Virus record (IMG/VR): IMGVR_UViG_3300029878_000067
Length of the DNA stretch: 7,989 bases
From: a virus
Lineage: Duplodnaviria > Heunggongvirae > Uroviricota > Caudoviricetes
Direction: 5' to 3' (one strand)
Shown: one piece after another, positions 1-7,478 of the stretch
How the letters are laid out: every line of letters starts with the position of its first letter
Numbering within the stretch: position 1 is the stretch's first letter
Notes under the pieces: model-generated
Seen by the model: only the letters and a program-made list of their open reading frames with translations
What the model was told of the DNA's origin: nothing
Databases searched by the model: none
Position numbers and translations under genes: made by a program

Positions 1-2234
<2,234 letters not shown>

Positions 2235-2291
2235 TCATGCTCCATAAACGACAAAACCGCCCGCAGGCGGTTTCACATAAAACGTTTTTCA

Positions 2292-2471
2292 TCAACGACC
2301 AATCACCACAACCTGACCACCGTCCCCCTCGTCTGCCGTGCTGATCTCCTGAGAAGCCACCCGCGACCCCACGCGCATTTCACCGTACAGAACAGGCAGA
2401 ACATTGCCCTGGGCAACCATGTTATCCAGTGAGGAGAAATAGGTGTTCTGCTTACGCAGCTCTGCTGTCAC
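2292..2471 (-). pseudogene. I: Remnant: first ~6 codons of head protease/scaffold gene C (GTG start at 2471..2469) fused in frame to the C-terminal ~53 codons of tail assembly protein I
   Basis: Seen in sequence: minus-strand reading from GTG gives V/M-TAELR then KQNTYFSSLDNMVAQGNVLPVLYGEMRVGSRVASQEISTADEGDGGQVVVIGR and a stop. Established knowledge: TAELR is the start of lambda gpC and the remainder is the gpI C-terminus. Junction at about 2452 with AA microhomology. The 104-aa ORF in the track (2292..2606) reads out of frame through B sequence for its N-terminal half. Confidence 0.75.
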
Positions 2472-2751
2472 TCTTCTCCTCCTCTGTTGATTGTCGCAGT
2501 CCGGATTCAAATGCCGCAGCCGCCCAGGCGGGCGGTTTAAGACCGGCTGCACGGCGCTCCATCGTTTCACGGACCTGCTGGGCAAAAATTTCCTGATAGT
2601 CGTCACCGCGTTTCGCGCACTCTTTCTCGTAGGTGCTCAGTCCGGCTTCTATCAGCATCACCGCTTCCTGAACTTCTTTCAGACCATCGATGGCCATACG
2701 ACCGGAGCCTATCCAGTCGCAGTTCCCCCAGGCACTGCGGGCTTCCTGAAA
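2452..2751 (-). pseudogene. B: Portal protein B remnant, C-terminal ~99 codons only
   Basis: Seen in sequence: minus-strand frame gives FQEARSAWGNCDWIGSGRMAIDGLKEVQEAVMLIEAGLSTYEKECAKRGDDYQEIFAQQVRETMERRAAGLKPPAWAAAAFESGLRQSTEEEKSDSRAA then TAA at 2454..2452. Established knowledge: matches the remembered C-terminus of lambda gpB. No upstream portal sequence is present; the fragment abuts terminase A sequence out of frame at about 2751. Confidence 0.8.
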
Positions 2752-3533
2752 ACCCCGTTTTTGTTTCGCTTACGTGGCATGCTGGCCACCGGCTTTCCGT
2801 AGACGGATGCCCCTTTAATGGGGATCACCCGGAACAGCCCATGTTTTTTCGAGCGTTCATACACAATGGTCGGGTCAATCCCGCCAGTATCCCAGCAGAT
2901 ACGGGATACCGACATCTCTGCACCATTCCGGCGGGTATAGGTTTTATTGATGGCCTCATCCACACGCAGCAGCGTCTGTTCATCGTCGTGGCGGCCCATA
3001 ATAATCTGCCGGTCAATCAGCCAGCTTTCCTCACCCGGCCCCCATCCCCATACGCGCATTTCGTAGCGATCCAGCTGGGAGTCGATACCGGCGGTCAGGT
3101 AAGCCACACGGTCAGGAACGGACGCTGAATAATGCTCTTTCCGCTCTGCCATCACTTCAGCATCCGGACGTTCGCCGATTTTCGCTTCCCACGTCTCACC
3201 GAGCGTGGTGTTCACGAAGGTTTTACGTTTTCCCGTAAGGGTGTTGCGCTGCTTATGCTCTATGAAGTAGGCATAAACACCCAGCAGCATTTTGGAATAA
3301 CCGACACGGGCANNNNNNNNNNNNNNNNNNNNNNNNNNNNNNNNNNNNNNNNNNNNNNNNNNNNNNNNNNNNNNNNNNNNNCAGCGCCCTTCCTGGTATG
3401 CGGATTCTTTCGGGAGATAGTAACTGGCATCCGCCCATTCAACGGCAGTCTGTGGCTCCGGCCTGAACAGGGCTCGCAGCCCGGCGCGTACATCACGCCG
3501 CAGAATATCAATCTGACTGTTCGATATATTCAC
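2709..3533 (-). pseudogene. A: Terminase large subunit A remnant: N-terminal ~99 codons joined to a C-terminal nuclease-domain segment, then fused out of frame to the B remnant; contains a 69-nt N-run
   Basis: Seen in sequence: translation [15 protein letters not shown]...ARVGYSKMLLGVYAYFIEHKQRNTL is followed directly by TGKRKTFVNTTLGETWEAKIGERPDAEVMAERKEHYSA...MPRKRNKNGV. Established knowledge: in lambda gpA these two blocks are separated by roughly 300 residues (ATPase-domain region), so there is an internal deletion at about 3236. After KNGV the frame runs into B-derived DNA and stops at 2709. The start overlaps Nu1 by 26 nt as in lambda. Confidence 0.85.
3313..3381. other. Run of 69 ambiguous bases (N): assembly gap or masked segment inside the terminase A remnant
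   Basis: Directly visible in the sequence; appears as X residues in three ORF-track translations. Confidence 0.97.
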
Positions 3534-4053
3534 TCAGCAACCCCGGTATCAGTTCATCCAGCGCGGCTGCTTTGTTCATGGCTTTGATGATATCCCGTTT
3601 CAGGAAATCAACATGTCGGTTTTCCAGTTCCGGAAAACGCCGCTGTACCGAGAGAGGGATCCCGTCAAGAATACTGGCAATTTCACCTGCGATCCGTGAC
3701 AGCACGAAAGTACAGAATGCGGTTTCCACCACCTCTGCGGAGTCTCTGGCATTCTTCAGCTCCTGTGCGTCGGCCTGCGCACGCGTAAGTCGATGGCGTT
3801 CGTACTCAATAGTCCCAGGCTGGAGATCTGCCTCACTGGCAGCCCTGTAATCCACAACCTCTTTACGGAGTTTTTCATTTTCGATATCAGCTTCCCTCTG
3901 CGCATACCACTGAATTGCCATGGCGGTATCAAATACAGATTCAACGCCCTTACCACCTCCGGAGACGCAAGGGAGTCCCTGAGACTGCCAGCGTTCAATC
4001 GTTCGCGGATCCACGTTGAAAATTTCGGCAAGTTTCTTTTTATTAACCTTCAT
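3508..4053 (-). CDS. Nu1: Terminase small subunit Nu1 (181 aa), apparently intact
   Basis: ORF-track protein [36 protein letters not shown]... The C-terminal ~100 residues ([60 protein letters not shown]...LSEYIEQS) match my recollection of lambda gpNu1 nearly exactly; the N-terminal DNA-binding region is similar but diverged. Lies cos-proximal with a 26-nt overlap onto the A start, as in lambda. Confidence 0.9.
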
Positions 4054-4229: not shown

Positions 4230-4241
4230 AGGTCGCCGCCC
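4230..4241 (-). other. cosN: cosN 12-nt cohesive-end sequence (GGGCGGCGACCT on the minus strand)
   Basis: Exact 12-mer AGGTCGCCGCCC on the plus strand at 4230..4241, embedded in lambda-like flanks, about 177 bp from the Nu1 start codon (lambda spacing is about 179). Confidence 0.85.
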
Positions 4242-4464
4242 CGTAACCTGTCGGATCGCCGGAAAGGACCCGCCAACGACTTTCGCGTGCAGGCATTAAA
4301 AATTTTGCAGTTCCATGCCTAGTTGAAACCTCGATTTCTATAACATCCAATTTTGTAAATTTAGATATAGCTCAACTTTTCCCAATGTTTTCAAGTGTAT
4401 AAAAACAATTGGCGTTACGCCATAACACTATACTTAGGATAAGTAAAGATTTTAAGGAGTTTTA

Positions 4465-5532
4465 ATGAGTCAACATCAATATTACCCACAGCTGAAATGG
4501 AAGCCTGCTGAATATGAATCTCTGATGCTTTTAGATCAAACTACGCTCTCTGGTTTTACTCCGATCATTACCATTCCAGACATAGACTGGGATTATGAAA
4601 ACGAATGCTACAAGAAGAGTTTGAGTTCTTACTTATCTGACTTCGGTATTAACCTTGCGGCATCCTGGAAAGCCAATCGTCCTGTTTTGCTGGATGTTAA
4701 ATATTTAGATAAACATGGTTCGAGCCGCCATCATCCTCTAGATATGTGTATCCAAGATGCTAGAGTAAATGGTAAGGAAATTATCCCTGTTGTCTCTCCC
4801 GCATATTCAACAAACTATATACATGCTGTTCAACGCAACTTAATCAATGGGCTCGCTATATCTATCACCCCCCAGACATGGCACCAATTCACAAGTCTGG
4901 TTAACCACTTAAATATTCATCCTAGTTTAATTGATGTAATCATTGATTTTGGAGATATTCAAAACGCAACTGATAGTTTAAAACAACAAGCATTAAGCAT
5001 GGTCAACACATTATCAGGCCAAGCTCCGTGGAGAAACTTGATTTTATCTTCAACCGCATACCCTGCATCACAGGCAGGGATACCGCAACATCAAGTTCAT
5101 CATATTCCGCGCCATGAATACGATCTTTGGATGTATGTAGTACAGAATTTTAGCAATGGAAGAACGCCAAGTTTTAGTGATTATCCCACCGCTAGCTCTA
5201 CCATTACGAGCGTAGACCCACGCTTCATGTCTCAGTATGTCTCAGTGAGATATTCGAACGATACCTCATGGATCTTTGTAAAAGGTACCGCAGTTAAAGG
5301 AAATGGATGGGGCCAAACTAAAAACTTATGTACTACCCTTGTTAGTTCGCCAGAGTATCAAGTCTTTGGCTCCAAATTTAGTTGGGGGGATGATTACATT
5401 TACCAAAGATCATTAGGCGCTAACAAATCTGGCGGCTCTAAAGAATGGCGTAAAGTTGCACATACGCACCATATTACGTTAGTCGTGAGACAGCTTTATT
5501 GGTTGGCGCAGACTCAGCCTGCCAAGCCTTAA
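4465..5532 (+). CDS. Hypothetical protein, 355 aa, AT-rich cargo gene; function unknown
   Basis: Seen in sequence: long ORF with a perfect AAGGAG at 4454..4459, 5 nt before the ATG; GC content visibly lower than the flanking phage genes (by eye, not computed); AT-rich upstream region with -10-like hexamers (TATAAA 4398..4403, TATACT 4429..4434). Protein begins MSQHQYYPQLKWKPAEYESL; no nucleotide-binding or catalytic motif that I can assign with confidence. Confidence 0.72.
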   Translation: MSQHQYYPQLKWKPAEYESLMLLDQTTLSGFTPIITIPDIDWDYENECYKKSLSSYLSDFGINLAASWKANRPVLLDVKYLDKHGSSRHHPLDMCIQDARVNGKEIIPVVSPAYSTNYIHAVQRNLINGLAISITPQTWHQFTSLVNHLNIHPSLIDVIIDFGDIQNATDSLKQQALSMVNTLSGQAPWRNLILSSTAYPASQAGIPQHQVHHIPRHEYDLWMYVVQNFSNGRTPSFSDYPTASSTITSVDPRFMSQYVSVRYSNDTSWIFVKGTAVKGNGWGQTKNLCTTLVSSPEYQVFGSKFSWGDDYIYQRSLGANKSGGSKEWRKVAHTHHITLVVRQLYWLAQTQPAKP

Positions 5533-6094
5533 CTTTCCAGCCTACGCGTTTCTTTAAGGCTGTTCTGACTTCAAGCCTGAGATTCGCTATTGGAATATTT
5601 TCCGCAATAATATTCCATAACTCAAATCGGGGCTTGCTTTTGATTCCTTTGGAATAGCCCCATCGTTCAAGTACGTCGATACATTCATCTTTCCAAAGCA
5701 ATTGAGCGAGCATCAATGAGTTATGGTTTCGATTAAGCTTTTCTCCACGCATGTGCTTTATAAGAATGGCGCCTTTTGGCCCAACAGAAACCGTTTTAAC
5801 GCCCCACCAACCTGGGATTAACTTTAATGCTCCCTCAAGATGTTTCTCAGCTACGACAAGAGTAACCTTGTCCATTACAGAAGAATAATGCTTGATTTGA
5901 AGAGGCAAACGCTCCAAAGAGTCATATTCACTTTTGAGCTCGTACCCGTGTATAACACCATTTATTACAGCAATGTCTGCTCTACTGGCGCCAAGGGATA
6001 TGGAAAATTCATCGACCACAAGGCAGTCAGGATCTAAATGCGATTCTTTCAAAAGCTTATGATGCACCGCGAACCTAACATCTTGATCTTTCAT
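5474..6094 (-). CDS. Hypothetical protein, 206 aa, with a PD-(D/E)xK nuclease-like motif; AT-rich cargo gene
   Basis: Seen in sequence: ORF with AAGGAG (plus-strand CTCCTT at 6100..6105) 5 nt before the ATG. Protein contains LVVDEF ... SRADIAVING ... HGYELKSEYD, i.e. an acidic residue, then D, then E-x-K about 11 residues later, in an alternating strand/helix context. Inference: this is the signature of restriction-endonuclease-like folds. Convergent with, and overlapping by 59 nt, the 355-aa gene. Confidence 0.7.
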   Translation of the reverse strand: MKDQDVRFAVHHKLLKESHLDPDCLVVDEFSISLGASRADIAVINGVIHGYELKSEYDSLERLPLQIKHYSSVMDKVTLVVAEKHLEGALKLIPGWWGVKTVSVGPKGAILIKHMRGEKLNRNHNSLMLAQLLWKDECIDVLERWGYSKGIKSKPRFELWNIIAENIPIANLRLEVRTALKKRVGWKVKAWQAESAPTNKAVSRLT

Positions 6095-6122
6095 GACTTC
6101 TCCTTACTCCCTCCGTTACTGA

Positions 6123-6128
6123 ATTATA
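6123..6128 (-). promoter_or_regulatory. Candidate -10 hexamer (perfect TATAAT on the minus strand) about 30 nt upstream of the 206-aa gene start
   Basis: Plus-strand ATTATA at 6123..6128 is TATAAT on the minus strand; no good -35 match at 16..18 bp spacing; an adjacent tandem repeat occupies the -35 zone. Confidence 0.3.
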
Positions 6129-6132
6129 GCGC

Positions 6133-6151
6133 ACTGCATTTTACTGCATTT
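6133..6151. repeat. Tandem direct repeat ACTGCATTT x2 with 10-bp periodicity, immediately upstream of the candidate -10 of the 206-aa gene
   Basis: Plus strand reads CACTGCATTT TACTGCATTT at 6132..6151; one helical turn apart; located where a -35 element or activator/repressor site would sit. Confidence 0.5.
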
Positions 6152-6445
6152 GAGAGATTTGACCACTTCAATCACAAAATGCTTATCTGCAGCAACAAGA
6201 TTCATAGCCATACGACTATGGTGATTACCTTTTGTCTGGAAAACTGACCATTCCACGAAGATCAGATAGGTCTATAGAATCTTGGTTTGTCATAGCGTTC
6301 GCCTTACTTTGAGATGAACCTTTGCTGCATAGGAGATCAGCCCGTCAAGGCTCACCAGCACTAACTGACTACTCAAAGGCTCATTCCAAAGGGTTTGGTT
6401 CGACGTGGTTGAGTGCGCTGCGGTGCGCGGTGAAATACCTGTACA

Positions 6446-6473
6446 AAAATGCCCCGCATCTGCGAGGCATTTT
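6446..6473 (-). terminator. Terminator-like hairpin about 38 bp downstream of Rz, flanked by an A-run and a T-run (potentially bidirectional)
   Basis: Seen in sequence: AAAAATGCCCCGCATCTGCGAGGCATTTTCC. GCC/GGC and CGC/GCG pair around an ATCT loop with A-T extension; on the minus strand the stem is followed by TTTTTGTAC (5 U), on the plus strand by TTTTCC (4 U). No folding energy was computed. Confidence 0.42.
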
Positions 6474-6510
6474 CCTGAAAGTCACTTGTTAAATTTCAGT
6501 GAAATTAAAA

Positions 6511-6963
6511 TTATTTTAAGCACTGCGTCCTGATGTACTCCTGCAAGTAGTTAACCTGCGCGGTTATCTTGTCGATTCCACTTCGGAGACGGTAATAATT
6601 GAGTTCAGCATCTGCTGTAAGTCCTGGGCTTTCTCCATTGCCCATGCCGCTGGCTCCGGTCGTTGACTTTGCACAGGTGGCGGCGACTTGCAGGCGCTTA
6701 CGCCCAACAGAAACATCAGCACGTAGACTTTCGATAGTCGCGTTAGCATCAGCAAGCTCCTTTGTGTATCTTGCGTCGAGTTCTGCTACATCACGTTGAC
6801 GCTTCCGCATGTCAGCGATGATGTACGTGGCTTTATCGCGCTGTTCTTTATAGGTAATGGCATTATCACGGTAATGATTAACAGCCCATGACAGGCAGAC
6901 GATGATGCAGATAACCAGAGCATAAATAATCGCGGCGACTCTGCTCACTGATCTATCCCCCAA
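6511..6963 (-). CDS. Rz: Spanin inner-membrane subunit Rz (i-spanin), 150 aa
   Basis: Protein has an N-terminal TM segment [30 protein letters not shown] and a coiled-coil-like remainder; closely resembles remembered lambda Rz; sits immediately downstream of the endolysin with a 19-nt overlap. Confidence 0.85.
6564..6755 (-). CDS. Rz1: Spanin outer-membrane lipoprotein subunit Rz1 (o-spanin), embedded in the +1 frame of Rz
   Basis: ORF entirely inside Rz in another frame; signal-peptide-like N-terminus with lipobox-like VSAC followed by a proline-rich segment [16 protein letters not shown], the typical Rz1 architecture. The true start could be an internal Met. Confidence 0.72.
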
Positions 6964-7478
6964 CAGGCTAATGCGCTTTCCTGGTCACGACGAATAACCT
7001 GTCCATAGCAGTTATTTGAACGTATGCGGCAATCGCGCCCACCATCTTTTATCCACCAGCGAATCGCCTCGCATGCACCTTTACGATCACCGGCATTCAG
7101 CCGCTTATAAAACGTCGACGGGAAACACTTACCGGGGCCAATGTTATAGGGACAGAATGACGCTATACCCGCTTTTTGTGGTTCGGTCAGTGGTACTTTA
7201 ATATTGCGCTCCACCCATGCCAGCGCCTTATCACGCTCAATGGCGTTGACCTGGTCGCATTTTTCCTTCGACAGTTTCATACCGGGAAAAACGGGTTTTC
7301 CATCCACCATCGTGGCACCCCGACAGATGGTCCAGATGCCGGACCCATCGCGGTATGCCGTTGTGTGGTTACCTTCTTTTTCATCCAGAAACTGGTCGAG
7401 AATATCAGGCGCGGGCGCACCGACGGCAATCAGTGCCAGAACGGCAGCCGACAGGCCGTATCTGATTTTTGCGTTCAT
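6945..7478 (-). CDS. R: Endolysin R, T4-lysozyme-type (GH24) muramidase with N-terminal SAR (signal-anchor-release) domain, 177 aa
   Basis: Catalytic-triad spacing E-x8-D-x5-T in [23 protein letters not shown]; Gly/Ala-rich weakly hydrophobic N-terminus [16 protein letters not shown] typical of SAR endolysins; from memory, near-identical to E. coli cryptic-prophage lysozyme RrrQ and similar to phage 21 R. Confidence 0.9.

Follow-up and report, generated by a model that had tools for sequence, protein, structure and literature searches.

A prophage protein of the sce7726/P4 cII family carries a conserved PD-(D/E)xK active-site motif and is paired with a convergent Beta gene

The 7,989-nucleotide (nt) stretch of viral DNA analysed here (IMG/VR record IMGVR_UViG_3300029878_000067; the whole stretch is called the window) encodes a 206-residue protein of the sce7726/P4 cII family. 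It has a predicted PD-(D/E)xK nuclease core, and the active-site residues are invariant or nearly so across the family. The gene converges on, and overlaps, a gene for a 355-residue Beta-family protein. The Beta and nuclease-like genes together make up the conserved core shared by the gop-beta-cII system of satellite phage P4 and PD-lambda-2-type systems. With moderate confidence we read the 206-residue protein as a metal-dependent DNA nuclease effector controlled by Beta, within a prophage anti-phage cassette. The two genes and the signals in front of the nuclease-like gene are the following.

5474..6094, minus strand: gene for the 206-residue sce7726-family, P4 cII-like PD-(D/E)xK protein (open reading frame, ORF)
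6100..6105, minus strand: Shine-Dalgarno sequence AAGGAG of the nuclease-like gene, read from the sequence, 5 nt before the ATG
6138..6165, minus strand: weak candidate sigma-70 promoter of the nuclease-like gene, TGGTCA-16-TAAAAT (consensus scan, 9/12 matches)
4465..5532, plus strand: gene for the 355-residue Beta-family protein, predicted TIM barrel

The ORF at 5474-6094 is a real gene. Its ATG follows the AAGGAG ribosome-binding site at the distance listed, and the start is aligned with the starts of homologues, Met1 matching Met1 in 112 of 119. In a promoter scan of the region, the number of sites did not exceed that in shuffled sequences, and none was found on the plus strand for Beta.

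Family membership and the nuclease fold are near certain. The protein scores 183.7 bits against the NCBIfam model NF033832 (sce7726 family; curated cutoff 70 bits), covering profile positions 1-182 of 184. P4 cII, which RefSeq labels as sce7726 family, scores 151.4 bits against the same model. The two proteins are 26% identical over the full length (E 5e-12), and the 206-residue protein also matches the PADLOC model 'cll'. The copy of Pfam that was searched contains no model for it; its precomputed label, PF26915, has no mention in the papers searched. PHROGs gives both proteins of the pair as 'unknown function', and literature searches for sce7726, sce7725 and PF14350 brought up genome-annotation mentions only. 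A nuclease-fold assignment for the P4 cII family is already on record, as Table S3 of Rousset 2022 gives HHpred matches of P4 cII to MmcB-like (99.76%), NucS and several PDDEXK families, which the main text of that paper does not discuss (PMC9122126). The protein described here is an additional member of this named family within a described defence system; new are the extension to it, the residue-level conservation and the structural model. It shows no direct hidden Markov model match to the MmcB-like family PF06319, named after a Caulobacter DNA-repair gene. The crystal structure of that family, 3DNX (SPO1766), has 146 residues and lacks the C-terminal helical domain of the 206-residue protein.

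A preliminary description of this DNA had read an active-site signature from the strings LVVDEF, SRADIAVI, GYELK and VTLVVA. All four are present in the protein, and the numbering of E29, E52 and K54 is correct. The aspartate placed at position 41 is in fact D40, and its distance to E52 is 12 residues rather than about 11. As a string, the motif is no better than chance: among 466 unselected ORF translations 150-260 residues long, 38% contain D-x(8-20)-[DE]-x-K and 23% contain the fuller [DE]...D...ExK pattern. It becomes significant because the residues are conserved across the family and the fold is predicted. None of the four residues E29, D40, E52 and K54 varies among 116 homologues (39-98% identity), which answers the alignment check that the preliminary description had proposed. 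In a broader comparison, which took 149 representatives, each from a different 50%-identity cluster, together with P4 cII, E29, E52 and K54 are present in 151/151 and D40 in 150/151. Other positions are also invariant or nearly so (D58, R62, Q66, Y70, D75, H85 and W96-W97-G98), with further near-invariant residues at N121, W134, E137 and R183.

The AlphaFold2 model, computed with the 116-sequence alignment, has a mean predicted local distance difference test score (pLDDT) of 89.8 and a predicted template modelling score of 0.85. The chain begins with helix 3-20, followed by strands 25-32, 37-44 and 48-54, helix 63-73 and strand 76-82. Two more strands (98-104 and 110-116) precede a helical domain at 126-182, and residues 190-206 are disordered (pLDDT <50). 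In the prediction this is the alpha-beta-beta-beta-alpha-beta core of the PD-(D/E)xK superfamily. E29 is on strand 1, D40 on strand 2 (37-44) and E52/K54 on strand 3 (48-54), so that a family-conserved Asp and (D/E)xK occupy the strands expected for the superfamily. VTLVVA, described earlier as a hydrophobic strand after the motif, corresponds to model strand 76-82. The restriction-endonuclease-like fold suggested at first is therefore upheld, with the core recovered by structure prediction and the motif residues conserved among homologues. The C-terminal part is basic, as had been noted, with an isoelectric point of 10.2 for residues 121-206 vs 7.1 for residues 1-120, and in the model its SAP-like domain probably holds DNA. 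The corresponding positions in the window are given below.

5735..6094, minus strand: nuclease core, residues 1-120 (secondary structure of the model and conserved residues)
6008-6010, minus strand: codon of E29
5975-5977, minus strand: codon of D40
5939-5941, minus strand: codon of E52
5933-5935, minus strand: codon of K54
5897-5899, minus strand: codon of Q66
5885-5887, minus strand: codon of Y70
5549..5719, minus strand: basic, helical, SAP-like domain at the C-terminus (residues 126-182), putatively DNA-binding

RecB/Cas4-type nucleases carry their QxxxY motif on the helix that follows the ExK strand. Here the motif is present as Q66xxxY70 on helix 63-73; Q66 is found in 151/151 sequences, and position 70 is Tyr in 143 and Phe in 7. 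The protein has only two cysteines, C24 and C138, no Cys column is conserved in the alignment, and the four-cysteine iron-sulfur cluster of the Cas4/AddB type is absent. The 206-residue protein has no CARF or other sensor domain and no helicase partner. Any regulation would have to be supplied by the separate Beta protein.

The conserved residues also bear on whether the protein cuts DNA at all. It could instead be a non-catalytic regulator, using the PD-(D/E)xK fold as a DNA-binding scaffold to control Beta or prophage genes. Some database entries label homologues 'regulatory protein', P4 cII was reportedly named as a lysogeny-type gene, and the predicted SAP-like DNA-binding domain would suit such a role. 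Inactive derivatives of the fold, however, normally drop acidic or Lys residues, and this family keeps E29, E52, K54 and Q66 without exception and D40 in 150/151, which makes a purely regulatory role improbable.

The partner belongs to the Pfam family Beta_protein (PF14350, E 8e-56) and matches the PADLOC models PD-Lambda-2_C (E 4e-32) and 'beta'. Residues K51, D77, H90, D157, R190, H335 and H336 of Beta are invariant. Its profile gave noise only against all Protein Data Bank (PDB) chains. A specific relationship to DpdA/TGT was considered and rejected, the similarity being generic to TIM barrels. Mean pairwise identity among non-redundant genome pairs is 43% for the nuclease-like protein vs 29% for Beta; judged from these sequences, this is the contrast that would be expected of an effector and a faster-evolving sensor.

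Gene order was compared in two sets. The genome set of 80 loci (L004-L083) spans Proteobacteria, Firmicutes, Myxococcota, Acidobacteriota, candidate phyla radiation groups and others, and becomes a set of 84 with the window, its identical E. coli source (L003), P4 and phage Rac-SA53. The viral set comprises 80 contigs (L088-L167). Beta lies immediately downstream and convergent in 81/84 loci of the genome set and 79/80 viral contigs, 160/164 in total. Two of the three misses among the 84 are at contig ends, and the third, in Xenorhabdus (L010), is a real absence. Myxococcus phage Mx4 p30 (L085 2992-3561) is a sce7726 homologue without Beta in a co-directional phage gene block, an example of the nuclease-like protein occurring without its partner in some phages.

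The two genes of the window share their 3' ends.

5474..5532, both strands: antisense overlap of the gene 3' ends, 59 base pairs (bp), from the coordinates

This segment encodes the unconserved disordered tail of the nuclease-like protein (residues 187-206) and the last 19 codons and stop of Beta. Such a 3' overlap occurs in 69/73 non-redundant genome pairs, with lengths of 11-158 nt (median 50). The length is 2 mod 3 in 69/69 genome pairs, in all viral overlaps and in Gordonia phage Powerball (L084, 89 nt), and in most loci the Beta coding region covers the codon of the invariant R183. Common descent accounts for the constant phase, which neither in-frame stop shifts nor in-frame indels can alter. 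The phase thus indicates that the pair arose once and that the two genes have stayed in contact since; taking it as proof of function or of selected dual coding was rejected, as descent explains it equally well. The invariant convergent-overlap architecture appears not to have been described before.

The nearest characterized system is that of P4, whose genetics (Ghisotti 1990) are stated here as quoted in later papers. The P4 gop-beta-cII trio guards E. coli against lambda and P1 (PMC9122126), and kills the cell once the phage gene orf184 is expressed (bioRxiv 10.1101/2023.04.06.535777). In P4, gop and beta are on one strand and cII is convergent. The window has the same arrangement of a cII-family gene convergent with a 355-residue Beta gene, beside cos, on a mobile element, and P4 cII retains the E, D, ExK, Q, D58, R62, E137 and R183 of the 206-residue protein. 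There are also differences. P4 cII has 264 residues, with about 60 extra at the C-terminus; a 27-nt gap with an annotated terminator separates the P4 genes, whereas those of the window overlap; P4 is a satellite, whereas the window belongs to a lambdoid prophage; and the window Beta is nearer to PD-lambda-2C than to P4 beta. P4 further has gop upstream of beta in the same operon, and the window has no gop. Gop is a two-transmembrane protein with PspB/SLATT_4-like HHpred matches (Rousset tables, PMC9122126). P4 gop (L001 247-648) also gives a weak, below-cutoff NCBIfam match to 'mobilome CxxCx(11)CxxC protein' (E 7e-4). There is no plus-strand ORF of at least 50 residues between 4072 and 4465, and P4 Gop has no phmmer match in the window or the 80 genome loci. 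A gop-like third gene of the island was rejected on these two grounds.

PD-lambda-2 consists of a HigB-like protein (A), a HigA-M78 peptidase (B) and a Beta-like protein (C) (Vassallo 2022, PMC9519451). Both genes that precede the Beta-like gene, for the HigB-like and helix-turn-helix (HTH)-peptidase proteins, are absent from the window, and the published three-gene definition lacks a cII-like component. In our genome set HigB and an HTH-M78 peptidase of this type are found upstream of Beta in 12 loci (L040 at 6558-8122, L045, L052, L053, L056, L062, L066, L070, L072, L074, L075 and L080). A convergent sce7726 gene is the fourth component in all 12. An XRE-S24 repressor-like gene is upstream of Beta in five loci and gop in P4 only; the remaining loci, the window included, have no conserved gene there.

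The pair forms a two-gene accessory cassette (moron) beside cos in a lambdoid prophage. In the mechanism we propose, the nuclease-like protein would be a Mg2+-dependent DNA-cutting effector with a SAP-like grip on DNA. Beta, the faster-evolving partner, would sense infection or otherwise license the nuclease and would not be a classical antitoxin, and the lysogen would block superinfecting phages, probably by abortive infection. Catalysis, the DNA substrate, the effector and sensor roles and the anti-phage function of the gop-less form are what we infer.

Several observations weigh against this nuclease-effector reading. The active-site geometry is deduced from strand positions in the model only. 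The 206-residue sequence and its profile have no significant match to a solved nuclease among all PDB chains, and hhalign of the family profile with lambda exonuclease gave no alignment (probability 0.15), so that equivalence of the catalytic residues is not demonstrable by sequence. Protection against lambda and P1 was shown only for the three-gene P4 version, and the demonstrated P4 toxin is Gop, not cII (PMC9122126). P4 Beta acts as the Gop neutraliser, and by that analogy 'antitoxin' would fit Beta better than 'sensor'. In the published PD-lambda-2 clone only 396 bp follow Beta, so that a complete cII-like gene was probably unneeded for PD-lambda-2 defence. There are only a few natural disruptions of Beta, described next, and as a mutational target Beta is larger than the nuclease-like gene.

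The two genes are found together in 127/5426 complete E. coli genomes (about 2%), at identities of at least 99%. In three of the 127 carriers Beta is not contiguous and the nuclease gene is intact, for example with IS1 in strain NMBU-W12E19. Among the numbered loci, an intact nuclease-like ORF lies next to a Beta gene that is disrupted by IS1 (L086 1895-3739) or, in two viral contigs, split into two ORFs (L116 4563-5631) or rearranged (L149 2044-4940). A disrupted Beta beside an intact nuclease argues against Beta as an indispensable antitoxin or protective modifier. This bears on two other explanations of the pair. The first is a toxin-antitoxin or addiction pair, in which the nuclease toxin is held by Beta or the reverse, antisense transcription of the overlap sets the ratio, and the outcome is prophage stabilisation, not defence. 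P4 gop-beta and PD-lambda-2 have both been described as toxin-antitoxin-like, the convergent overlap is strictly conserved, and the accessory genes of related loci (HigB, HTH-M78, XRE-S24) are toxin-antitoxin parts. However, Beta is a 355-residue enzyme-like TIM barrel, unlike known protein antitoxins, and loci with disrupted Beta and intact nuclease exist, few as they are. In addition, defence by PD-lambda-2 requires the Beta homologue PD-lambda-2C, whereas its toxin is neutralised without it (PMC9519451). We consider such a pair unlikely. The second, which we consider improbable, is a restriction-modification-like pair, in which Beta as a TIM-barrel DNA modifier (for example a DpdA-like base-exchanging transglycosylase) marks self and the nuclease cuts unmarked DNA; the same loci count against a protective modifier.

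The nuclease-effector reading also has to fit the place of the genes in their carrier. The window is part of a lambdoid prophage and is 100% identical to E. coli WP5-S17-ESBL-10 (RefSeq-annotated locus L003). Neighbouring features are listed here; the genes come from the ORF list and RefSeq annotation.

about 1608-3533, minus strand: terminase large subunit, with 69 masked N bases at 3313-3381
3508-4053, minus strand: terminase small subunit
4230-4241, minus strand: lambda cohesive-end sequence GGGCGGCGACCT, exact match
4242..6510: low-GC island (composition profile, RefSeq annotation of the identical E. coli locus, cos site)
6444-6474, minus strand: strong hairpin and T-run immediately 3' of Rz (RNA fold -20.3 kcal/mol, z -6.1)
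6511-6963, minus strand: Rz
6945-7478, minus strand: lysozyme

The composition profile gives 38-44% GC in the island vs 50-62% in the flanks, and the island holds only two genes, the 355-residue ORF on the plus strand and the 206-residue ORF on the minus strand. The cos sequence precedes the terminase small-subunit start by 177 bp. With this exact cos on one side and Rz on the other, the Beta/cII-like island is at the far right of the packaged genome; the defence hotspot of P4 likewise adjoins cos. A simple terminator scan missed the hairpin, a likely intrinsic terminator that would keep transcription in the lysogen from running into the island. Between Rz and the island genes, the spacer (6290-6510) is 87.6% identical to part of a rha/antirepressor gene of P22-like phages; it contains no intact ORF and is apparently what remains of a gene. 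RefSeq flags the portal, S49 protease and one tail gene of L003 as frameshifted or with an internal stop, and the carrier prophage is therefore probably defective, with the two-gene island intact.

This location argues against an ordinary nuclease of phage DNA metabolism, an exonuclease for recombination or replication in the life cycle of the prophage itself. In favour of such a role, gp32 of Gordonia phage Powerball carries the annotation 'exonuclease', and the Beta-less Mx4 homologue sits inside a co-directional gene block. The gene in the window, however, is outside the replication and recombination region, in the low-GC island between Rz and cos, with its own ribosome-binding site after a strong terminator. 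The family is locked to Beta in 160/164 loci, and the P4 counterpart region is non-essential and defensive (PMC9122126). A housekeeping role for the phage is very improbable.

On a wider and more tentative view, which we regard as possible but doubtful, the Beta and sce7726 pair would be an ancient, self-sufficient nuclease-based immune or addiction unit of many phyla and phages, onto which Gop, HigB/HigA-M78 and XRE-S24 were grafted later. The obligatory one-phase tail-to-tail overlap would then have a function: through transcripts that collide or act as antisense, the two genes would be expressed reciprocally, and a phage-induced change in transcription or late-operon read-through in the carrier prophage would free the nuclease. 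The gop-beta-cII and PD-lambda-2 systems are experimentally validated anti-phage systems. Current defence-system finders, which use a three-gene definition, would presumably leave the widespread two-gene form uncalled. The cII family has a fully conserved nuclease active site, and both systems are built around its invariant pairing with Beta. The gop-less two-gene form offers a minimal tractable model of this core, with clear point mutants (D40A, E52A and K54A) for the roles of effector and Beta.
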